Of a DNA stretch of 64,000 nt, positions 4,150-63,945 are shown in pieces. The number at the start of each line of letters is the position of its first letter. The first letter of the stretch is position 1. The notes below the pieces were generated by a model. It ran no database searches, was not told the DNA's origin, and saw only the letters and a program-made list of their open reading frames with translations. The DNA comes from Candidatus Zixiibacteriota bacterium. GTDB taxonomy: Bacteria; Zixibacteria; MSB-5A5; GN15; FEB-12. The position numbers and the translations under genes are program-made. The stretch is taken from NCBI GenBank assembly GCA_020346225.1, contig CP070777.1, positions 2,764,736 to 2,828,735 of the forward strand. Reading direction: 5' to 3'.

Positions 4150-6558
4150 ATGGTAAAAACGATGACCGCTGCAGTTCTTGTGCTGCTTGTCACCGGTGGG
4201 GCCCTGATGTCACAGCCTCTCTTTGACACCAGGCTTCCCCATCCCGTAGGCTATTCTGCCCAGGCCATTGTCTCAGACGACTTTGATGACCTCCCCTGGT
4301 TCGATGTCGCCGTTACTTGTTCTGAAACCGATGAGGTAATTGTTGTCCTCGGTACGAGCGACGGCCGCTTTTACAACAGCGGTACCTATGAGGTCGGTCT
4401 GGGGGGGACCGGGGTAAGCGACGAGCCCTGGGCCATCGCTGCGGCCGACCTCGATGGAATTAATGGTCCTGACCTGGCCGTGGCCAACCGGTCGGGACCG
4501 GGTTCCGCCAGCATCTCCATTCTATTTAACAACGGTGATGGCACGTTTGCCGATGCCGTCCACTATGCGGCCGGGTCCACCTGCGATTACGTTTCGATAA
4601 CATCGGCAGATGTCGATGGCCTTAACGGTATCGATCTTATCACCACGAATTCTTATGACAACACCGTTTGCGTGATGCTAAATGATGGATCCGGAAACTT
4701 CGGAACCGGGGTTACTTACTCCACCGGTAACTTTCCCGTGGCCGTCTGCGCCATTGACGTGTATGGCACTGGCCTTTCCGATCTGGCTGTGGTTAATGAA
4801 GCAGATGACAATGTGTTAATACTGAGCAACAACGGTGACGGTACTTTCTCGCCTGGCTCCTATTGCCCGGTTGGAGACTCTCCGCGGTCGATTGTCTCGC
4901 GCGACTTTGACGGTGATAACAGCCCCGATCTTGCTGTAGGCAACTACGGCTCTTCTCAGGTTTCCGTTCTGCTTAATGACGGTTCCGGTGTTTTCGGTGC
5001 TGCTGTCAACTACGACGTGCCGGTCGGACCAACTCATCAGTCGATTTGTGCCGGCCCACTTGACGGCGACGCCAGCCGTGACCTGGCCGTGCTTGGAAGT
5101 ACGGACAGTGTTTATGTTCTACTTAATTCCGGCGACGGCACTTTCGACGGCTACACGGCATATCCGGCCGGGGACTCAACGTATGCGGTGGTTGCCATGT
5201 ACTTCAACATGGACTTCTTTGAAGACCTGGTCGTATCAAGCATGTCCAACGCCCCTGGGGACTCGGGCTATGTTTCCGTCCTTCTGAACAAGGAAGACGA
5301 GGGCTTTCCCCTGCCGGCCGCCTATAGTGTCGGCGGTGATCCCAGTACCGTGATCGCAGTAGATCTCGACGGTTCCGACGGCCTCGATCTGGTGACGGCG
5401 AATCCAGGCTCCGACAACATATCGGCGCTTTATAATGACGGTGATGGAAACTACGACAACATCGTGAGCTATAGCGCCGGCGACGAGCCGCGCTCAGTGG
5501 CAGCCGGGGATTTCGATAGCGACAACGATTATGATGTTGCGGTAGCTAACTTTGGGTCGAAAACAGTTACCATATATGCTAATAACAGCGGATCACTTTC
5601 CCTTTCGGGGCAATTGGCTTTCTCTAATGAACCGATTGCGATCGAGTCTGCTGACTTTGATGATGACGGCGACGATGATCTGGCTGTGGTGTGTTCCCTG
5701 TCGAACCAGGTTTACGTCATGATTTGCGACGGTTCGCTCGGCTTTTATGACCCCATCAGCTATGGGACCGGTGCTGACCCGCGGGCCGTCCATTCCGCCG
5801 ATTTCGATGGCGTCAACGGTCCCGATCTGGCCGTGGCCAATTGGGGGAGCAACGATGTCTCGGTCTTTCTCAGCAACGGCGACGGGTCGTTCAGCACGGC
5901 CGGGAATTTTCCTGCGGGAAACAACCCCATATCTATCACCTCGGCTATGTTTGACGGGGACAACGATTATGACCTGGCGGTGGCTTCCGAGACGGATGAT
6001 TCCTGTGCCATACTCTGGAATGACGGTTACGGTAATTTCTCCACATGCTCTTTCTTCTCAGCCTTGTGGAGCGGTTATACCTGCGTTGCCGCCGCTGACG
6101 TTGATGGGTCTGACAGTCCTGACCTCATCCTGAGCCACCGGCCCCTTTCCGCTGTCACCGTGATGCTCAACGACGGGGCCGGCAACATGTCCGACGGCAG
6201 TGGCGCCCTTCATTTCGGAACCGGAATGCATCCCTCATGCGTCGTTGCTGCCGACGTAGATGGCGACACCGACGATGATCTGGTTACGGTTCATCCCGAG
6301 GAGTATCGGGTTTGTACCTTCCTCAATACGACTATCGAGCCATGCTGTGAGCTGCGCGGTGATGTCAACCATGACGGCCAAATCGATGTACTCGATGTCA
6401 CCCATCTGGTATTTTGGATTTTCAAGGCCGGCTCCCCGCCTCCCCCGTGTATGGACGAGGCAGACGTCGACGGCAACGATGTCGTAAACGTTCTCGATGC
6501 AATATACATGGTCGACTTCATCTTCAAGTTGGGTCCGCCGCCAGTTCCGTGCCCGTAA
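4150..6558 (+). CDS. Secreted FG-GAP/VCBS-repeat (beta-propeller) protein with a C-terminal dockerin-like domain
   Basis: AAGGAGG RBS 8 nt upstream and an N-terminal signal peptide. More than 10 repeats of the D.DGD...DL.V.N....V.VLLN.GDG.F type. The tail has two EF-hand-like segments (DVNHDGQIDVLDV, DVDGNDVVNVLDA). Confidence 0.85.
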   Translation: MVKTMTAAVLVLLVTGGALMSQPLFDTRLPHPVGYSAQAIVSDDFDDLPWFDVAVTCSETDEVIVVLGTSDGRFYNSGTYEVGLGGTGVSDEPWAIAAADLDGINGPDLAVANRSGPGSASISILFNNGDGTFADAVHYAAGSTCDYVSITSADVDGLNGIDLITTNSYDNTVCVMLNDGSGNFGTGVTYSTGNFPVAVCAIDVYGTGLSDLAVVNEADDNVLILSNNGDGTFSPGSYCPVGDSPRSIVSRDFDGDNSPDLAVGNYGSSQVSVLLNDGSGVFGAAVNYDVPVGPTHQSICAGPLDGDASRDLAVLGSTDSVYVLLNSGDGTFDGYTAYPAGDSTYAVVAMYFNMDFFEDLVVSSMSNAPGDSGYVSVLLNKEDEGFPLPAAYSVGGDPSTVIAVDLDGSDGLDLVTANPGSDNISALYNDGDGNYDNIVSYSAGDEPRSVAAGDFDSDNDYDVAVANFGSKTVTIYANNSGSLSLSGQLAFSNEPIAIESADFDDDGDDDLAVVCSLSNQVYVMICDGSLGFYDPISYGTGADPRAVHSADFDGVNGPDLAVANWGSNDVSVFLSNGDGSFSTAGNFPAGNNPISITSAMFDGDNDYDLAVASETDDSCAILWNDGYGNFSTCSFFSALWSGYTCVAAADVDGSDSPDLILSHRPLSAVTVMLNDGAGNMSDGSGALHFGTGMHPSCVVAADVDGDTDDDLVTVHPEEYRVCTFLNTTIEPCCELRGDVNHDGQIDVLDVTHLVFWIFKAGSPPPPCMDEADVDGNDVVNVLDAIYMVDFIFKLGPPPVPCP

Positions 6559-6634: not shown

Positions 6635-6970
6635 TCAAGACCGTGTCGCCCACTTTCTCGCCGTGGTTCGGATCTGACTACCTGTACTGGGTATGCTGTC
6701 GCGCTCCTCACTGCAGCAGAAAACAGCCGTGGTGTTGATCCCCCCTTTGTCGGTCAGATCGGTATGGCGGATATAAAAGGGATAATCTATAGTGGTTTCG
6801 CAGAACTCGACCAGCTCGCCGGTGCTGTACTCGCCCAGCGGGATGAAAAATGTCTTACATGGATCATCGTACTGCGGTGTTACTGCGTTGTCGGGAATGT
6901 TCTGGTCGCAACTGACCAGCGTCAAAAAAAGAGCGGTGGCGGCAAAAGCTGCGGTTCGTGTGGTGTCCAT
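6635..6970 (-). CDS. Small lipoprotein of unknown function
   Basis: Signal peptide with lipobox LTLVSC. AAAGGAA RBS. The C-terminal 60 aa are paralogous to ORF 3585-3881. Confidence 0.7.
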   Translation of the reverse strand: MDTTRTAAFAATALFLTLVSCDQNIPDNAVTPQYDDPCKTFFIPLGEYSTGELVEFCETTIDYPFYIRHTDLTDKGGINTTAVFCCSEERDSIPSTGSQIRTTARKWATRS

Positions 6971-7050
6971 CGTTCCTTTCGGCCCGGACCGGTCGAACGT
7001 TTCTCAAGAATCTCAACAAAACCTCCGGGCCCAAAGGTCCCGCCCCGAGG

Positions 7051-7097
7051 TAATAAATAAGGGCCAAGCCTGCGGGGAGGGGAAACAGACTTGGCCC
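7051..7097 (-). repeat. Terminator-like hairpin repeat with C-rich loop, copy 1
   Basis: Minus-strand RNA reads GGGCCAAGUCUG-UUUCCCCUCCCCG-CAGGCUUGGCCC followed by UUAUUUAUU. The single non-Watson-Crick pair is a U-G wobble on the minus strand only. Confidence 0.6.
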
Positions 7098-7259
7098 GTT
7101 CATAGGTGTCGGTCAAAGTAGAGACTACCTCAACCAACACCCGGAACTGGATATTCCCGAACCTTGGTAATTCGGAAACATATAACCTCACTAATACTAT
7201 ACGAAATTCTAATCCCGGCCGTAAGTCAAATCGAAAATTCCCGTCGGATTCTGAACAGG

Positions 7260-7302
7260 CAAAAAAGGGCCAAGCCTGCGGGGAGGGGAACAAGCTTGGC
7301 CC
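7260..7302 (-). repeat. Terminator-like hairpin repeat with C-rich loop, copy 2
   Basis: Minus-strand RNA reads GGGCCAAGCUUG-UUCCCCUCCCCG-CAGGCUUGGCCC followed by UUUUUU. Confidence 0.65.
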
Positions 7303-7507
7303 AGTCACAGATGTCGATCAAAGATGCAGTTAATTTTTGCTAACATAACATGATACGCGACCTGAGGGTTCCCCCGGTTGAGAAAATTTGTAAAAAATAA
7401 TCCATTTAATGCTCTTTTCCGATAAGTCCCGGCTGTCGAGCACTCGTCTGTTTCACAACATCTTAGGTATCTGTGGTGGCTTATGTAAGACGGTGGCGAC
7501 CCGGACC

Positions 7508-7551
7508 AAATAGAAACGGCCAGGCTCGAGGGGAGGGAAACGAGCCTGGCC
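7508..7551 (-). repeat. Terminator-like hairpin repeat with C-rich loop, copy 3 (likely terminator of gene 7650-8276)
   Basis: Minus-strand RNA reads GGCCAGGCUCG-UUUCCCUCCCCU-CGAGCCUGGCC followed by GUUUCUAUUU. The stem differs from copies 1 and 2 by compensatory changes while the loop is conserved. Confidence 0.6.
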
Positions 7552-7649
7552 TAACCAGAGTGTCAATCAGAACAGATGATCAAGCAAATTCTCAAACGCG
7601 CTTTGCAGTCAAAAGGTTCCCGCAAAGTGGCCCGGAATCGGGGGCCGGA

Positions 7650-8276
7650 TTATTTCTTCTTCTTGCCGGAGCCTTTCTTGCCGCCCTTGTCCTTCTTGGC
7701 CGGTTTGTCGGCCTCCTTTTTGGACTTCTCTTTCTTGATCTTGTCGGAAATCGCTATAAAGCTCTGTCCCTGCTCTCGCATGCGGACCACCTCGTCCGGA
7801 GACCAGCCGTAATGCTCCGAGACAAATTTGAGATTGACGAAATTTACGATATCAACATCAGTCAGCTTGATTGATTTCCACTGGTCCCGGTGACGGTTGC
7901 GAAAATGGCCGCAGGCCTTGCCGTAAGGCGGTCCGGAGACCTTCGCAATTTCGACATAGTAAATAGCCGCGCTGAGTTCGAAGTGGGTCGTGATTTCCAT
8001 CCAGGTGCGCCCGCCCAGTCGCAGGTCGACGATGACACTTGGCGCTACATTGGCATGCCGCGCAAGGAAAAAGACTACAGCCAGGTCGTCATCCGATATC
8101 TCCTTCTTCTTGACGACGATGATTTCTTTCTCCGGTACCCGGTAGTGGTCGCCGATAGCGAGATAGAAGCTGCTTACGCGGCCATCGGTGATGGAAAGAG
8201 CCGCCTCAACGCTCGCCTGCACTGCAGACGGCACCATGGCCAGAACAAGAACCATAATCAGCATGATCCGTTTCAT
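7650..8276 (-). CDS. Secreted hypothetical protein with a lysine-rich C-terminal tail
   Basis: AGGAGG lies 7 nt upstream of the ATG at 8276. Signal peptide MKRIMLIMVLVLAMVPSAVQA. Tail KKEKSKKEADKPAKKDKGGKKGSGKKKK. Confidence 0.65.
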   Translation of the reverse strand: MKRIMLIMVLVLAMVPSAVQASVEAALSITDGRVSSFYLAIGDHYRVPEKEIIVVKKKEISDDDLAVVFFLARHANVAPSVIVDLRLGGRTWMEITTHFELSAAIYYVEIAKVSGPPYGKACGHFRNRHRDQWKSIKLTDVDIVNFVNLKFVSEHYGWSPDEVVRMREQGQSFIAISDKIKKEKSKKEADKPAKKDKGGKKGSGKKKK

Positions 8277-8582
8277 CTTACGCCTCCTCATTGTCAAAAC
8301 CCGGACGCGGCCGGGTATTTTCGATTTCTGATCCGATATGATTAAATTCGGCGGATTACGACCGGCAATTTAACTTTTTCCTGAGAAGTCTTGACGGGGT
8401 GATTCGGAGTTGGCCGGATAGTCGACCGCCGGGGGCGTACGAAACCGGTTGAGCGCCCCATCTTGCTGTTTTACAGCGCATTGCGCGTCCCTAAAGATTG
8501 TTGTGGTTCCCGCTTTGGCTCAAGTATGGAGGGAACCGGTCGATATCAGGTTATAGCAAAGCTAGGAAAAGAGGCTAGGAAA

Positions 8583-9437
8583 ATGAGGTCCTACCAAGCG
8601 GCATCTCTTATTCTGGCATTGTTGGCGTTTGTCGGTGTCGTCTGGGCGAATTCCAACGGCACCAATTTCGAGGCTCTCACGGGTGCACCGGGCGAGTCTA
8701 CGTGCGCCGACTGCCACAATAATCTTAACACCGGGTCCGGTTCCGTGTCGATCACAGCCCCGGCCGATTACAACCCGGGAGACACTCTTGACATCACCGT
8801 CGCGGTGGCGCACACCGGCCAGAGTCACTGGGGGTTCGAGCTCACCGTTCTGGATGACTCCGACCAGCCCGTCGGGGAGTTACTTGTCACCGATGCAGCG
8901 CGCACCCTGAAATCGGTGGCCGGCACCGGCCGCGAGTACGTCAAGCAGACCAGTGACGGTTCTGACGCCGGCAAAGGTAACAGTACCGACTGGAGCTTCC
9001 AATGGGTGGCGCCGCCGGCCGACGCCGGGGCAGTGACTTTCTATACGGCTTCGGTAGCCGCCAACCAGGCTTCCGGCCCCAATGGTGATTTCACATACAC
9101 CACCACGCACGTCATGCTGGTCACCGATATACGGCGAGAGGAAACAGGGTCGCTACCGAACGGCTTCCATGTGGCGCAAAATTACCCCAATCCGTTCAAC
9201 CCCGCCACCACCATAGCCTTCAGTCTACCGGTACGGAGCCACGTTTCGGTTGCCGTTTATAACGTTCTGGGGCAGCAGGTGCGGGTTCTTGGCGACGGCG
9301 TTTTACCGGCCGGGAACTATACCTCGCGGTGGGACGGGACCAGCGAGGACGGCCGTCAGGTGGCCAGCGGCATCTACTTCTACCGTGTGCATGCCGGTGA
9401 CCGGACGGAAGTCAGGACAATGGTGTTGCTGAAGTAG
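8583..9437 (+). CDS. Secreted protein with one CxxCH motif and a T9SS-type C-terminal sorting domain
   Basis: ATG at 8583 follows an AGGAAAA RBS. Signal peptide present. CADCH motif near the mature N-terminus. C-terminus NYPNPFNPATTIAFSLP...GIYFYRV...MVLLK. Confidence 0.75.
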   Translation: MRSYQAASLILALLAFVGVVWANSNGTNFEALTGAPGESTCADCHNNLNTGSGSVSITAPADYNPGDTLDITVAVAHTGQSHWGFELTVLDDSDQPVGELLVTDAARTLKSVAGTGREYVKQTSDGSDAGKGNSTDWSFQWVAPPADAGAVTFYTASVAANQASGPNGDFTYTTTHVMLVTDIRREETGSLPNGFHVAQNYPNPFNPATTIAFSLPVRSHVSVAVYNVLGQQVRVLGDGVLPAGNYTSRWDGTSEDGRQVASGIYFYRVHAGDRTEVRTMVLLK

Positions 9438-9468: not shown

Positions 9469-10830
9469 TCATTTCACCAGAATCATCTTGCGGCAGGCCG
9501 TGAACGCATCGGCCCGTACTCTGTACAGGTATACTCCGGATGCAAAAGCGCGCGCATCCCAGAGCACCCGGTGCTCGCCTGCCTCAAACCAGCCGTCTGC
9601 AGGCACACCAACCACCCGTCCGGTAATGTCGATGACCTCCAATCTCACATGGCAACTGCGGGGAAGGTCGAACCTGATCCACGTGACCGGGTTAAACGGG
9701 TTGGGTGAGTTCTGATGAAGGGCGAATCTAGCCGGCAACTGGATTTGGTCACCCTCGCTTGAAGCCGTTTCGGTACAGGCTGGGTCAAAGGCTCCGATGA
9801 GGACGCCGCAGTCATTGTGTTCCGGCGCACAGGGCGAGGTGGTGCTGATACTGAAATCTCCCCCGGCGGCGTCGCAAAACAGGGGGTCTTGGGAGAAGTT
9901 ACCGTAATCGTCTTCGGGCTCCTCGCCGACATACTCGAAGTCCTTGATGCCGTTGCCGTAAGCATCGTTGCAGCTGACCACCACGTCGCCCGCCCAGATG
10001 TGCGAAATCAGCCCGTACTCCTCGTTAAAAGCCATGATGCAGTTTTCTATGGTCGATGTTTCAGTGGACGTCGCTGTGGGCATGCTTACCACGGCTTTCG
10101 GGAAATCCCATTCGTATTCAGCCCCGATGCGGTTGCCCACAAAAGTACAGTTTTGAACGTGAAACAGTCCAGAGCCCACCAGTAGCCACAATCCGTGACC
10201 GCCGTTGTTGCGCACCAGGCAATCGGTCATCTCGAATTCATATCCGTACCACCGGGCGTTCCAGATGACCCCGTAATCCTCGTTGAAAGATATCTCGCAG
10301 CCGGAAACAACGGCGCCGCACGCATCAACCCAGATACCGCGGCTCTCATTTTCGGTAACTACACAGTCATAGACCCGCAGTGTGGCCCTCTCGTAGCGGA
10401 CACCGTTGCAGTTGTTGGCGGTGATGATGCAATTGCGCAGGGTCGGTGAAGCCCCTTCGCACCTGACGGCGGCATCCCACCAGTCCGGGCCATAGGCATC
10501 AGTGATGGTGAAACCGTCGATTTCAGAGGTCTCATCCTCGCCCGAATGGAGATAGAAACCGCAGTGTGGCTCTGCTTCGCTGCCGTCACAATCGATTATC
10601 GTAAACTCAGGCCCGTTTTCGGACCTCAGGACGATATTCTTGCCTTTGAAGTCGATATCGCGGTTGCCGTCGCCTGAATAGGTGCCGTCGCCTATCACTA
10701 CCGTCCCGCCTTCCTCGGCGGCGTTTATGGCCGCCTGGATGGTGGGATGGTCGCCGGGCACGCGGACCTCGGCCGAAGCGAATTCCACCAATAACAGGGC
10801 AGTCAGCAGAATCGCGGCAGATTTTTTCAT
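9469..10830 (-). CDS. Right-handed parallel beta-helix repeat protein with a T9SS-type C-terminal sorting domain
   Basis: Signal peptide present. Repeated beta-helix-like segments (NC.I..N...G....). C-terminus NSPNPFNPVTWIRFDLP...GVYLYRV...MILVK. Confidence 0.75.
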   Translation of the reverse strand: MKKSAAILLTALLLVEFASAEVRVPGDHPTIQAAINAAEEGGTVVIGDGTYSGDGNRDIDFKGKNIVLRSENGPEFTIIDCDGSEAEPHCGFYLHSGEDETSEIDGFTITDAYGPDWWDAAVRCEGASPTLRNCIITANNCNGVRYERATLRVYDCVVTENESRGIWVDACGAVVSGCEISFNEDYGVIWNARWYGYEFEMTDCLVRNNGGHGLWLLVGSGLFHVQNCTFVGNRIGAEYEWDFPKAVVSMPTATSTETSTIENCIMAFNEEYGLISHIWAGDVVVSCNDAYGNGIKDFEYVGEEPEDDYGNFSQDPLFCDAAGGDFSISTTSPCAPEHNDCGVLIGAFDPACTETASSEGDQIQLPARFALHQNSPNPFNPVTWIRFDLPRSCHVRLEVIDITGRVVGVPADGWFEAGEHRVLWDARAFASGVYLYRVRADAFTACRKMILVK

Positions 10831-23458: not shown

Positions 23459-23535
23459 TGGTACCCCCGGCAGGACTCGAACCTGCTACCCTCTGCTTAG
23501 AAGGCAGATGCTCTATCCGGATGAGCTACGGGGGC
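23459..23535 (-). tRNA. tRNA-Arg (anticodon TCT), CCA encoded
   Basis: Manual cloverleaf: GCCCCCG-TA-GCTC-ATCCGGATA-GAGC-A-TCTGC-CTTCTAA-GCAGA-GGGTA-GCAGG-TTCGAGT-CCTGC-CGGGGGT-A-CCA. Confidence 0.9.
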
Positions 23536-28622: not shown

Positions 28623-28696
28623 TCGGGGTGAGAGGATTTGAACCTCCGACATCTTGCTCCCAAAGCAAGCGCGCTGCCAGACTGCGCCACACCCCG
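28623..28696 (-). tRNA. tRNA-Pro (anticodon TGG), CCA not encoded
   Basis: Manual cloverleaf: CGGGGTG-TG-GCGC-AGTCTGGCA-GCGC-G-CTTGC-TTTGGGA-GCAAG-ATGTC-GGAGG-TTCAAAT-CCTCT-CACCCCG-A. Confidence 0.88.
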
Positions 28697-53280: not shown

Positions 53281-53874
53281 ATGCAGATTACAGCCAAGAT
53301 GGTCAAGGAGCTCCGGGAGAGAACCGGGGCCGGCATGATGGACTGCAAGAAAGCCCTAACGGCCACCGAAGGCAACTTCGATAAAGCGATCGAGCACCTG
53401 CGCCAGCAGGGCATCGCCCGGGCAGCGTCAAAAGAGGGTCGCCGCACGGCCGAAGGCGTCATCGCTACTTATGTGCACACCGGGGATAAGCTCGGTGTTA
53501 TGGTGGAAATCAATTGCGAAACCGACTTCGTCGCGCGGACCGATAAGTTCAAGGATTTCGCCCGCGACGTGGCCATGCATATCGCGGCTTCCAGCCCGCT
53601 TTGCGTCAGGCGGGAGGAACTGCCCGAAGATACCGTCAGTAAGGAACGGGAGATTTATCGTCAGCAGGCGCTCAACGAAGGCAAACCCGAGAAGGTTCTT
53701 GACAAGATTGTAAGCGGCAAGCTGGACAAGTACTTCAGCGACGTCGTCTTGCTGGAGCAGCCTTTTGTCAAGGACAACGACCTGACCGTAGAAGAATTCG
53801 CCAAGAACATGGTCGCCTCTCTCGGTGAAAACATTATCATCCGTCGCTTCTCCCGTTTTCGATTGGGTGAATAG
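53281..53874 (+). CDS. tsf: Translation elongation factor Ts (short form)
   Basis: [22 protein letters not shown]-like N-terminus. rpsB-tsf synteny. Confidence 0.94.
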
Positions 53875-57380: not shown

Positions 57381-58225
57381 GCAAGAACCTTGTCACTCGT
57401 ATCATAGTCGCCGCTATCGCCATCCCGGTGATTCTCTGGATTTCCTATCAGGGGGGAACCTGGCTGGCCGGCATGGTGTTGCTGCTGGCCCTGTTGGCCA
57501 TCTCTGAATTCCTCGTCAATGAGGGATATCGGGCCAGTTCGTGTCTCTTCTGGTTCGGGCTGGCAATAGCCGGCCTGATGGTGGCCAGGTTTCATATCTT
57601 CGGCTACTCGCTGTGGTATATGTTCGTGTTCGGAGGTCCGGTTTTTGTCCTGATCATCATGCTGTTCGTGGGCATGGCCTTCGCCACCGGCCGCCGACCG
57701 CCGGACGAGCTGTTCCGGGGGTATGTTCGCTTCGTTTGGGGAGTGCTTTATATCGGGTTGCTCTATCCGTATGTTTATCTGGTCGGGGCGGACCATATCG
57801 GTGTGGCAGTGGCGGCTTCCGGGGGCGACTGGCTGCTCTTTCTGTTCGGTCTTCTGTGGGTCGGGGATACGGCGGCGATGGGCTTCGGGAAATGGCTCGG
57901 CCGTAGAAAACTGGCGCCGGCGGTATCGCCCAACAAAACAGTCGCGGGCTTTGTGGGCGGCATTGCCGGAGCGCTGGCGATCGGCGTGGTCATGTACTTC
58001 TGGAAATTCCGGGACCTGGAATGGTATCATGTGCTGATTCTGGCGGCCCTGTGCTCGGTCTTCGGTCAACTGGGTGATCTGGTCGAATCGATGTGGAAAC
58101 GGTCGCTGAACATCAAGGACTCCTCATCCATAATTCCGGGTCACGGCGGCGTTCTTGACCGCTTCGACTCTCTTCTGTTCGCGGCGCCGGCTATGTTTTT
58201 CTACCGGCTGATTTTTCTGACATAG
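57377..58225 (+). CDS. cdsA: Phosphatidate cytidylyltransferase
   Basis: ATGA overlap with the uppS stop. Polytopic membrane protein with the C-terminal signature SPNKT.AGF.GG...K....KD.S..IPGHGGVLDR.DS. Confidence 0.9.
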   Translation: MSKNLVTRIIVAAIAIPVILWISYQGGTWLAGMVLLLALLAISEFLVNEGYRASSCLFWFGLAIAGLMVARFHIFGYSLWYMFVFGGPVFVLIIMLFVGMAFATGRRPPDELFRGYVRFVWGVLYIGLLYPYVYLVGADHIGVAVAASGGDWLLFLFGLLWVGDTAAMGFGKWLGRRKLAPAVSPNKTVAGFVGGIAGALAIGVVMYFWKFRDLEWYHVLILAALCSVFGQLGDLVESMWKRSLNIKDSSSIIPGHGGVLDRFDSLLFAAPAMFFYRLIFLT

Positions 58226-62799: not shown

Positions 62800-63050
62800 C
62801 TCCGAAGAAGAAGTATGCGGATTTTGAGACGGCTCTGGCACGTCTCGAGGAGATCACGGATCTTCTCGAAGAGGGTGAACAGTCGCTCGAAGAGTCCATA
62901 AAATTTTACACCGAAGGTCTGGAGATCGCCAAATTCTGCAGTGACCGCCTTTCCGACGCCGAGAAGAAAATCAAGCTGATTTCCGGGAAAGACGGCGAGA
63001 CGGTCGAAGAAGACTTTTCAGCAGGTCAGGGGTCCGACGATGCCGTCTAA
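62796..63050 (+). CDS. xseB: Exodeoxyribonuclease VII small subunit
   Basis: FE.AL.RLEEI...LE.GE.SLEES motif. The start overlaps the xseA stop. Confidence 0.9.
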   Translation: MTPKKKYADFETALARLEEITDLLEEGEQSLEESIKFYTEGLEIAKFCSDRLSDAEKKIKLISGKDGETVEEDFSAGQGSDDAV

Positions 63051-63924
63051 GGCGGTCGATACCGGGAAATATCTGAAACAGGTTCAGGCGCGCACCGACA
63101 AGCTGCTCGACCGGTATCTTCCCGGCGTAGACGTGCCGCCCCACCTGCTGCATGAAGCCATGCGCTATTCCGTTATGGCCGGCGGCAAGAGGCTGCGACC
63201 GATTCTGGCCTGGGCCGCCTATCAATATTGCGGCGGTGATACCGAGGGTGACGATCTCGCCATCCATTATGCCATGGCGGCCCTGGAGATGGTTCATACC
63301 TATTCGCTGATACATGACGACCTGCCGTGCATGGACGATGATGACCTTCGGCGCGGCATGCCCACCTGCCATAAGAAATACGGCGAAGCCGTGGCGGTTC
63401 TGGCCGGCGATGCCCTGCATGATGTCGCCTTCAACCTGATGGCCTCGACCGGTTCAACTGCCGTTGTGGTCGAGCTGGCTCACGCCATCGGAACTGACGG
63501 TATGCTCGGCGGCCAGGTGGCCGATATTCAGGCCGAGGGCCGCGATGTCGACCGCGAGGAGATCATAGATATCCACCGGCGCAAAACCGGTGCCCTGATT
63601 CGCTGTTCGGTGCGAGTCGGTGCCATTCTCGCCGGGGCCTCAGCGGACACGCTCGAGAAGCTGTCCACCTACGGGGCCCGTATCGGCCTGGCTTTTCAGA
63701 TTATCGATGATATTCTTGATATTGAAGGTGACCAGAGTTTGTTGGGAAAGGCTGTCGGCGCCGATTGTAAAAAACAGAAAGCGACCTATCCCGGGGTGGT
63801 GGGCCTGAACCAGGCCCATGACGATGCCGCCGAGTTGATCGCGCAGGCAAAAGCGGTGCTCGATGAATATGATGACAACATGCTGGTACATATAGCGGAT
63901 TACATCGCCCAAAGAAGGAACTGA
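63040..63924 (+). CDS. ispA: (2E,6E)-farnesyl/geranylgeranyl diphosphate synthase
   Basis: First Asp-rich motif LIHDDLPCMDDDDLRRG and second motif FQIIDDILD. Confidence 0.92.
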   Translation: MPSKAVDTGKYLKQVQARTDKLLDRYLPGVDVPPHLLHEAMRYSVMAGGKRLRPILAWAAYQYCGGDTEGDDLAIHYAMAALEMVHTYSLIHDDLPCMDDDDLRRGMPTCHKKYGEAVAVLAGDALHDVAFNLMASTGSTAVVVELAHAIGTDGMLGGQVADIQAEGRDVDREEIIDIHRRKTGALIRCSVRVGAILAGASADTLEKLSTYGARIGLAFQIIDDILDIEGDQSLLGKAVGADCKKQKATYPGVVGLNQAHDDAAELIAQAKAVLDEYDDNMLVHIADYIAQRRN

Positions 63925-63945
63925 CCCCGGTCGTATTGAGTTCGA

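Follow-up and report, generated by a model that had tools for sequence, protein, structure and literature searches.

Candidate tandem small RNA genes with a conserved C-rich terminator loop in one clade of Zixibacteria

MicA, RybB and MicL of the Enterobacteria are small, terminator-ended RNAs under the control of a single stress sigma factor, sigma-E; an extracytoplasmic function (ECF) promoter with an AAC-containing -35 element is the sole conserved feature upstream of them, their seeds lie at the 5' end rather than in C-rich loops, and their genes are not tandem paralogs. RsaE/RoxS and other C-rich small RNAs (sRNAs) of the Firmicutes use unpaired C-rich motifs to target G-rich Shine-Dalgarno (SD) regions. 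Here we describe an array of three hairpin-containing units in a 64-kb stretch of a Candidatus Zixiibacteriota genome (contig CP070777.1, positions 2,764,736 to 2,828,735; hereafter the window, with positions counted from its first nucleotide). The closest documented analogue of this array is the CcsR1-4/cuckoo RNAs (Rfam ar14, RSs0680) of Rhodobacter, Sinorhizobium and other Alphaproteobacteria, which are tandem homologous sRNAs located directly downstream, and on the same strand, of a small conserved gene, which show a C/U-rich anti-SD motif in their hairpin loops, and which have an alternative stress-related sigma promoter, with sigma-70 promoters at the copies of some relatives (PMC8034643).

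The array occupies a gap of ~680 nt (6971-7649) between two minus-strand open reading frames (ORFs), 7650-8276, which encodes a 208-aa protein, and 6635-6970, which encodes a lipoprotein-like product of 111 aa. Judging from sequence comparison, this gap probably contains three tandem, independently transcribed minus-strand sRNA genes of ~80, 82 and 74 nt (units A, B and C, from gene-proximal to distal) that act by the mechanism proposed below. Comparison of related genomes indicates more firmly that the units belong to a real, conserved and previously uncatalogued tandem sRNA gene family in one Zixibacteria clade.

All the listed traits of the CcsR/cuckoo RNAs recur here, the stress-related promoter as a prediction, yet the two systems differ in other respects. 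The Zixibacteria units present a single C-rich loop, UUCCC(C)UCCCC, as part of the terminator hairpin, whereas cuckoo RNAs have two CCUCCUCCC loops (PMC8034643), and the 5' stem-loop of a unit, where present, lacks a C-rich loop. Each unit has its own promoter motif and terminator, whereas the CcsR RNAs share a single RpoHI/HII promoter and are then processed by RNase E. The neighbouring gene encodes a predicted secreted helical protein without a Pfam domain rather than a DUF1127 protein, and the host phylum is Zixibacteria, of the FCB group. Neither ar14 nor CcsR was matched at E ≤ 10 in 6900-7700, or at gathering score anywhere in the window. By these comparisons the array RNAs are analogous to the CcsR/cuckoo RNAs, not homologous to them.

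Other known families gave no closer relative. With Rfam 15 at gathering score, the whole window yielded no match in the array and only two tRNAs (23462-23535 and 28623-28696, both on the minus strand), and at E ≤ 10 the interval 6900-7700 yielded only sub-threshold matches at chance level (ar7, PK-BYV, let-7, mir-5345, Pseudomon-1/ErsA and sR40). The best of these, the alphaproteobacterial sRNA ar7 (RF02342), reached 22.5 bits where its gathering score is 60 (E = 0.033 when 800 nt were searched); its alignment pairs a hairpin bearing a CCCCUCUCC-like loop and a second hairpin with the array and spans non-homologous flanks, so that the resemblance seems to be only one of motif type, not of homology. 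RsaE/RoxS likewise has no Rfam match here and differs in architecture, phylum and promoter type. MicA, RybB and MicL are unrelated in sequence and have a TCAAA -10 element, where the units have a GTT of the SigH/SigE/SigR type from which their sigma dependence is predicted.

Covarying hairpins with a conserved loop

An initial annotation of the window, made from its letters alone, had placed three hairpins in the gap between two minus-strand genes, and its description proved accurate in all the particulars that we checked. The hairpins lie at the positions it gave (Table 1), with arms of 11-12 nt that are 92-100% complementary, and the 64-kb window holds no fourth: a degenerate hairpin pattern matched these three sites alone (0.00 expected, from 100 shuffles), and the loop word GGGGAGGGRAA is confined to them (0.12 expected). 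The conserved sequence that it saw adjoining each copy is real and reads, on the minus strand, as a shared box, UGAYYGACAYCU.UG, immediately 5' of every stem. The U-rich tract that it reported on the other side is present as 6-7 T in the 9 nt after each stem. RNAfold formed the expected hairpin in each unit, with loops of 10-12 nt and z-scores of -3.3 to -5.5 against shuffles.

Besides the window, eight Zixibacteria genomes or contigs carry two or three complete units at the syntenic site, which brings the collection to 24 complete units in nine genomes or contigs, plus one unit truncated by a contig end. All are downstream of an ortholog of 7650-8276 and on the same strand as that ortholog. 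Structure statistics were drawn from a model-based alignment of 21 units, with the caveat for the pairing measures that this alignment is fitted to a covariance model (CM). Standard pairs account for 97.2% of its stem cells. Nine of the 12 stem pairs vary and seven have changed on both sides, giving stems as different as GGCCAGGYYYG, GGGCCRAGYYUG, GAACAGGUCUG, GGGGCCGGCCUG and GGGCUGGCCUG. None of 500 column shuffles reached any of five covariation measures, and sliding the 3' partner by 1-3 columns brought pairing down to 26-61%. The compensatory substitutions that had been read in the stem of unit A are correct, and the covariation extends to the 21 homologous units.

The stems also reveal which strand is transcribed. 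Across the 11 core pairs of the 21 units, 30 cells are G·U or U·G, none is unpaired and none is A·C, whereas the opposite strand would hold 30 A·C mismatches; unit 2 of L173, one of the related loci, has three consecutive wobble pairs. The single imperfect pair of units B and C, noticed at the outset as U·G on the minus strand, is thus one instance of a pattern found throughout the homologous units, and the 30 G·U cells against no A·C identify the window's minus strand as the RNA strand.

The loop varies far less. Among 24 units it is UUUCCCUCCCC in 11, UUUCCCCUCCCC in 10, UUCCCCUCCCC in two and UUCCCUCCCC in one, variants that differ by one U or one C within a run and together read UU(U)CCC(C)UCCCC. 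The combination of a covarying stem and a conserved loop, which the initial annotation had recognized in three copies, thus holds across the additional ones, and this comparison places the loop under a separate and stronger constraint than the stem. The 9 nt past the stem contain 4-8 T in the 24 units. Each hairpin therefore shares with intrinsic terminators a G+C-rich stem of 11-12 bp followed by a U tract, but not the short (3-8 nt), unconserved loop, which here is 10-12 nt long and invariant; a consensus terminator scanner whose limit for loops is 3-8 nt passes over the unit hairpins.

Promoter motifs and distribution of the units

Most units are preceded by GGAA(C/T)-N18-GTT in a fixed upstream register (20 of 25). 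In 17 of 22 units, the window's three among them, it lies upstream of the loop at a distance of 73-82 nt, and three more instances come from L185. An information profile anchored on the motif shows two conserved islands, gGGAACc and GTT, separated by an unconserved spacer of 17-18 nt and preceded by unconserved sequence; conservation returns ~8 nt past GTT, where unit A would start with (U)GCUUGAUCAUCU. Alignment of the window with L178 likewise limits conservation to the promoter motifs and the units, the spacers between them having diverged. The GGAAC form occurs 22 times on both strands of 120 kb of ingroup DNA, 18 times at units and four times elsewhere, against ~3.7 expected by chance (our estimate from motif length).

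Motifs of this kind are known from other phyla, among them that of Chlorobaculum, which belongs to the FCB superphylum as Zixibacteria do. In Corynebacterium, SigH/SigE-dependent promoters have the motif GGAAC-N18-GTT and the rshA stress promoters GGAAT-N18-GTT (PMC10012870). A similar ECF-type motif emerged from differential RNA sequencing (dRNA-seq) of Chlorobaculum tepidum, in a study that cites GGAAT-N18-GTT for Streptomyces SigR and a related consensus for mycobacterial SigE and SigH (bioRxiv 10.1101/172254). By its -35 element, -10 element and 18-nt spacing, the unit motif is a predicted SigH/SigE/SigR-type ECF-sigma promoter.

Of the five units that lack the ECF motif, four have sigma-70-like promoters instead. 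A promoter-finding tool detected one at the right distance from unit 2 in L174 (TTGAGA-17-TATAAT, 11/12) and others at unit 2 of L002 and of L034 (TTGATA-17-TAATAT and CTTACA-18-TATATT); TTACAT-17-TATATT was read by eye at L171 unit 3, and no promoter was found for L171 unit 2. The distal unit of L034 and L171 has a decayed ECF -35 box and retains only the sigma-70-like promoter, and in L034 the promoter found by the scan for this unit is the upstream one with the TATAKT box alone. A sigma-70 promoter scan of the gap in the window gave no sites; a TATAGT there (Table 1) reads TATATT in relatives and has no good -35 box in the window. As a side observation, a TATAKT box is conserved ~45 nt upstream of unit C's ECF motif (window, L172, L173, L178, L185 and L034), and TTCCCA or TTACAT stands 16-18 nt upstream of it in relatives. 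From these motifs the distal unit may have two promoters.

Elsewhere in the window, GGAAC-N18-GTT is matched only at 63917-63942 and 57455-57480, both on the plus strand and both compatible with chance. The former lies at the very end of ORF 63040-63924, where a downstream gene would be cut by the end of the window, and the latter 60 nt upstream of a possible 121-aa ORF.

The number of units varies between loci. There are three each in L171, L172 and L173, three in L178, L179 and L180, three in L185 and two in L174; L176 holds the one cut by a contig end, and L002 and L034 (the complete chromosome CP070674.1) have the ortholog of the 208-aa gene followed by two same-strand units. Units A, B and C are individually orthologous between genomes. 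Orthologs of unit A are almost identical in L002, L034, L171-L174, L178 and L185, with the ECF-type motif in identical register and an unconserved spacer in every one; unit B has an ortholog in L178, and unit C in L172, L173, L178 and L185. Since each of the three is orthologous across genomes, the duplications that produced them are older than the sampled divergence. Which gene lies beyond the distal end of the array depends on the genome, and in L171-L173 that gene is convergent.

Searches away from the syntenic site returned no further family members. The CM that had been proposed for scanning relatives found matches confined to that site in 422 kb of Zixibacteria loci. A pattern scan of species-representative genomes, which required the loop and the canonical box and left the stem unspecified, gave 90 matches, about the chance level, and only two of these (L002 and L034) had a hairpin; the complete 3.6-Mb chromosome CP070674.1 contains a single match to this pattern. 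Viral contigs gave 0 matches. A strict hairpin pattern also gave 0 matches in a collection of metagenome contigs, which is not a reliable negative as the collection apparently lacks L172 and L185, whose JGI contigs (Ga0123573_10001334 and Ga0074469_10248445) have sites that fit this pattern by eye. The dispersed distribution of a repetitive extragenic palindromic (REP) element, which the initial annotation had kept in view, was not seen in the sequence searched (the 64-kb window, the 422 kb of loci and the genome pattern scan).

More distant relatives have the neighbouring gene without the array. Among 80 metagenome loci encoding homologs of the 208-aa protein (41-61% identity), none has the loop motif in a downstream hairpin or a CM match. 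The 53 of these that were scanned have mostly an ordinary terminator with a 3-7-nt loop, 40-90 nt past the stop codon, and the ECF motif was not found in them. L181, L183 and L184 have no credible CM match, and in L183 and L184 the next gene begins only ~55 nt past the stop of the neighbour gene. The sRNA-positive genomes are monophyletic in a neighbor-joining tree of the neighbour protein. Because the distant relatives lack units and the positive genomes form one clade, the array is best explained as having arisen in a single Zixibacteria lineage, where it was inserted 3' of a gene that is far older.

Proposed mode of action and competing explanations

How the units are transcribed, on which sigma factor they depend and what they target are matters that we infer from these sequence features. 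Each transcript would start ~7-9 nt downstream of a GGAA(C/T)-N18-GTT ECF-sigma promoter, carry the conserved box UGAYYGACAYCU.UG in single-stranded form and end in an intrinsic terminator, a G+C-rich stem of 11-12 bp followed by a U tract, whose unusually large loop of 10-12 nt would expose the invariant UUCCC(C)UCCCC. The RNAs would be made upon activation of an ECF sigma factor, for example under envelope or oxidative stress. Their C-rich loop would imitate the anti-SD sequence of 16S rRNA and pair with the G-rich ribosome-binding sites (GGGGAGGGAA-like) of target mRNAs, blocking translation initiation, and the box would provide a second seed, or a site for a chaperone or RNase. The loop does contain CCUCC, the anti-SD core, flanked by more C and U, and its complement is GGGGAGGG(G)AA; a crude count finds a 5-mer SD at 17 of 46 long ORFs in the window. 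SD pairing by the loop would be the simplest reading of these features. A more specific proposal, which we offer tentatively and hold to be possible rather than probable, is that the array is a clade-specific battery of two or three ECF-controlled, anti-SD-loop sRNAs that jointly silence mRNAs with extended G-rich ribosome-binding sites under envelope or oxidative stress, possibly including type IX secretion cargo such as the product of the neighbouring gene 9469-10830.

Several findings weigh against independently transcribed sRNA genes that act in this way. Five of the 25 units lack the ECF motif, and tests of 10 small window ORFs revealed no ECF sigma gene. The sampled genomes cluster in a few close groups and amount to an effective sequence number of 3.5 in the CM, so the counts overstate the number of independent events; the conclusion that the RNA is structured nonetheless appears robust to this and to the fitting of the alignment, given how diverse the stems are and the outcome of the slide control. 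The window offered just two plausible ribosome-binding-site matches, at the start of gene 9469-10830, which encodes a beta-helix protein with a C-terminal secretion sorting domain (GGCGGGGGGAAC, -18.6 kcal/mol), and at that of tsf at 53281 (GGGGAGGAAAG, -17.7 kcal/mol), and comparable scores occur inside coding sequence; the L174 ortholog of the former gene retains only GGGGAG. The loop could, moreover, bind a protein instead.

Two other accounts keep the units tied to the upstream gene. The hairpins might be plain terminators or insulators, stacked against read-through from 7650-8276 into 6635-6970 and having no function as RNA, and each does have the G+C-rich stem and U-rich tract of a terminator. 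Alternatively, the units might be processed from the mRNA of the upstream gene without promoters of their own, for which their sharing of strand and position with its 3' untranslated region speaks, as does the precedent of CcsR (PMC8034643). The window itself lends something to both, as no convincing terminator there separates unit A from the stop codon at 7650; for this reason the unit A hairpin probably also terminates the mRNA of 7650-8276 here. That role had been suggested at the outset and is plausible for the window, but it does not carry over to several close relatives: in L172, L173, L176 and L185 the gene ends in a terminator of its own, with the units further downstream, and these terminators, like that of the outgroup, have short loops of unrelated sequence. 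Nor do plain terminators account for a 10-12-nt loop that stays invariant while the stem covaries, for the scanner's failure to call any of the hairpins, or for the promoter motif and the segment of 25-45 nt 5' of the stem that are conserved at each unit; the gene to be insulated differs between genomes, and the distant orthologs of the upstream gene make do with one ordinary terminator whose short loop is variable. We regard this account as quite improbable, and the novel terminator family that had been suggested alongside sRNAs is not favoured, as in distant relatives either a normal terminator with a short loop follows the gene or the next gene begins close by. Processing from the mRNA is left with little probability as well, given the strong terminator between gene and unit A in close relatives and the conservation of promoter motifs, though not of spacers, before the units. 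It is possible for unit A in the window and unlikely for units B and C, which read-through would reach inefficiently past units that each end in a terminator and U tract.

The remaining accounts concern what the units are rather than how they are transcribed. They could be real RNAs whose loop is bound by a KH- or cold-shock-domain (CSD)-type protein, or titrates some factor. The loop is invariant across paralogs older than the split of the genomes, a stricter constraint than many base-pairing seeds are under, the several near-identical loops of each locus recall multi-site decoys, and the target matches in the window are not compelling. Even so, the loop has the exact anti-SD core CCUCC and many window genes use strong SD motifs, the closest analogues, CcsR/cuckoo, are described with anti-SD loops (PMC8034643), and no candidate binding protein is linked to the locus, which makes a protein-binding role rather unlikely. 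The idea that a repetitive extragenic or miniature mobile element has accumulated in the gap and given rise to the units is prompted by three similar palindromic units in one place and by a different C-rich/G-rich repeat around the same gene, direct or inverted, in other Zixibacteria (L113 and L105). We consider it very improbable: such elements are dispersed in many copies, at non-syntenic places and in either orientation, whereas 24 of 24 units share one orientation and the syntenic site, no further copy was found in the window or by the CM elsewhere in the 422 kb of loci, CP070674.1 has one loop-plus-box match and the viral contigs none, and the orthology of types A, B and C implies an old and stable duplication. 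The preferred reading remains that of tandem, paralogous minus-strand sRNA genes, as the initial annotation had proposed, with synteny, covariation, loop constraint, strand asymmetry and per-unit promoter-like motifs in its support.

Three further candidates were rejected. A small ORF in unit A has a sole ATG frame (22 aa, in L002) that is lost in the window and in L178 (ATG to CTG). A leader or riboswitch for the downstream gene does not fit a gene that varies between genomes and is convergent in L171-L173. A plus-strand decoy of the CsrA type, with GGA loops, is ruled out by the G·U strand asymmetry.

Feature coordinates, neighbouring genes and significance

Table 1. Predicted features of the array, all on the minus strand. 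Unit 5' ends were placed from the promoter motif and the onset of conservation, and 3' ends from the U tracts.
Feature	Position	Strand	Description
Stop codon of the 208-aa gene (7650-8276)	7650..7652	-	Conserved 5' neighbour that anchors the array; outside the RNA genes
Unit A, ECF-sigma-type promoter motif	7595..7620	-	GGAAC 7620-7616, N18, GTT 7597-7595
Unit A, gene-proximal candidate sRNA	7508..7588	-	~80 nt; 5' end ~7588 (±3), from the onset of conservation against L178 ~8 nt past GTT; CM match 7504-7585, 79.5 bits; fold z -4.45; weak 5' stem-loop GAUCA-N7-UGAUU, linker GACACUCUGGUU, terminator hairpin, U-rich tail
Unit A, terminator hairpin	7518..7551	-	Arms 7518-7528/7541-7551; stem 11 bp; inter-arm 12 nt (7529-7540) = UUUCCCUCCCCU, with the conserved loop UUUCCCUCCCC as its core
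Unit B, ECF-sigma-type promoter motif	7347..7372	-	GGAAC 7372-7368, N18, GTT 7349-7347
Unit B, middle candidate sRNA	7259..7340	-	~82 nt; 5' end ~7340; CM match 7254-7335, 83.2 bits; fold z -3.28; variable 5' part, conserved box UUUGAUCGACAUCUGUGA, terminator hairpin, U6 tail
Unit B, terminator hairpin	7267..7302	-	Arms 7267-7278/7291-7302; stem 12 bp including one U·G; loop UUCCCCUCCCC
Possible sigma-70-type -10 box upstream of unit C	7196..7201	-	TATAGT; from the L178 alignment; role uncertain
Unit C, ECF-sigma-type promoter motif	7132..7157	-	GGAAT 7157-7153, N18, GTT 7134-7132
Unit C, distal candidate sRNA	7052..7125	-	~74 nt; 5' end ~7125; CM match 7048-7130, 84.7 bits; fold z -5.52; box UUUGACCGACACCUAUGA, terminator hairpin, tail UUAUUUAUU
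Unit C, terminator hairpin	7061..7097	-	Arms 7061-7072/7086-7097; stem 12 bp including one U·G; loop UUUCCCCUCCCC

The 208-aa protein encoded next to the array is identical to hypothetical protein JSW34_12265 of a Candidatus Zixiibacteriota metagenome-assembled genome (MAG), and its family comprises 183 matches whose named sources are almost all Zixibacteria. It has no Pfam domain, no significant NCBIfam match and no PDB sequence match. Read by eye, the N-terminus looks like a signal peptide and the C-terminus is Lys-rich. An AlphaFold2 model is all-helical, with 13 helices, a mean predicted local distance difference test (pLDDT) score of 84.6 and a predicted template modelling (pTM) score of 0.74, and a Foldseek comparison with the PDB gave no significant match, the best being designed helical repeats at E = 0.83. 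The protein is thus predicted to be secreted and all-helical, and it gives no clue to the function of the RNAs.

Around the orthologs of this gene in two loci outside the sRNA clade we observed a different element of ~70-75 nt, at 2740-2812 and 3781-3855 in L113 and at 2732-2801 and 3709-3778 in L105. Its sequence (…CTCCTCGCAATGACTGC…CCCCTCCCTTGCCCTCCCCTAAGAGGAGAGGGAAC…) contains C-rich/G-rich palindromes and has the look of a REP element or miniature inverted-repeat transposable element (MITE); the copies flanking the gene are direct in L113, and inverted and 91% complementary in L105.

The array is set among large genes for secreted proteins. The gene at 4150-6558 (plus strand) encodes FG-GAP repeats and a dockerin domain, that at 8463-9437 (plus strand) a Reeler domain and Por_Secre_tail, and that at 9469-10830 (minus strand) a beta-helix and, as a weak match, Por_Secre_tail. 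The presence of Por_Secre_tail points to cargo of type IX secretion, and relatives retain a Peptidase_C1/Por_Secre_tail gene nearby.

A full-text literature search for Zixibacteria and small RNA found no described regulatory RNA of the phylum, and the units appear, from the sequence comparisons, to form a previously undescribed RNA family that is so far limited to one clade of this uncultured phylum. The family yields a CM for annotating MAGs and mining metatranscriptomes. It also carries its own predictions, as the promoter motif points to an ECF sigma factor as the class of regulator and the loop to G-rich SD sites as the targeting rule. The array would represent a second, independent case of tandem anti-SD-loop sRNAs beside a conserved gene, and the CcsR/cuckoo design would then be a recurrent solution rather than a peculiarity of the Alphaproteobacteria. 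Should the tentatively proposed stress battery be real, it would parallel by convergence the sigma-E sRNA arm of the Enterobacteria as well as the CcsR/cuckoo RNAs of the Alphaproteobacteria, and its members would be, to our knowledge, the first riboregulators described for the uncultured phylum Zixibacteria.

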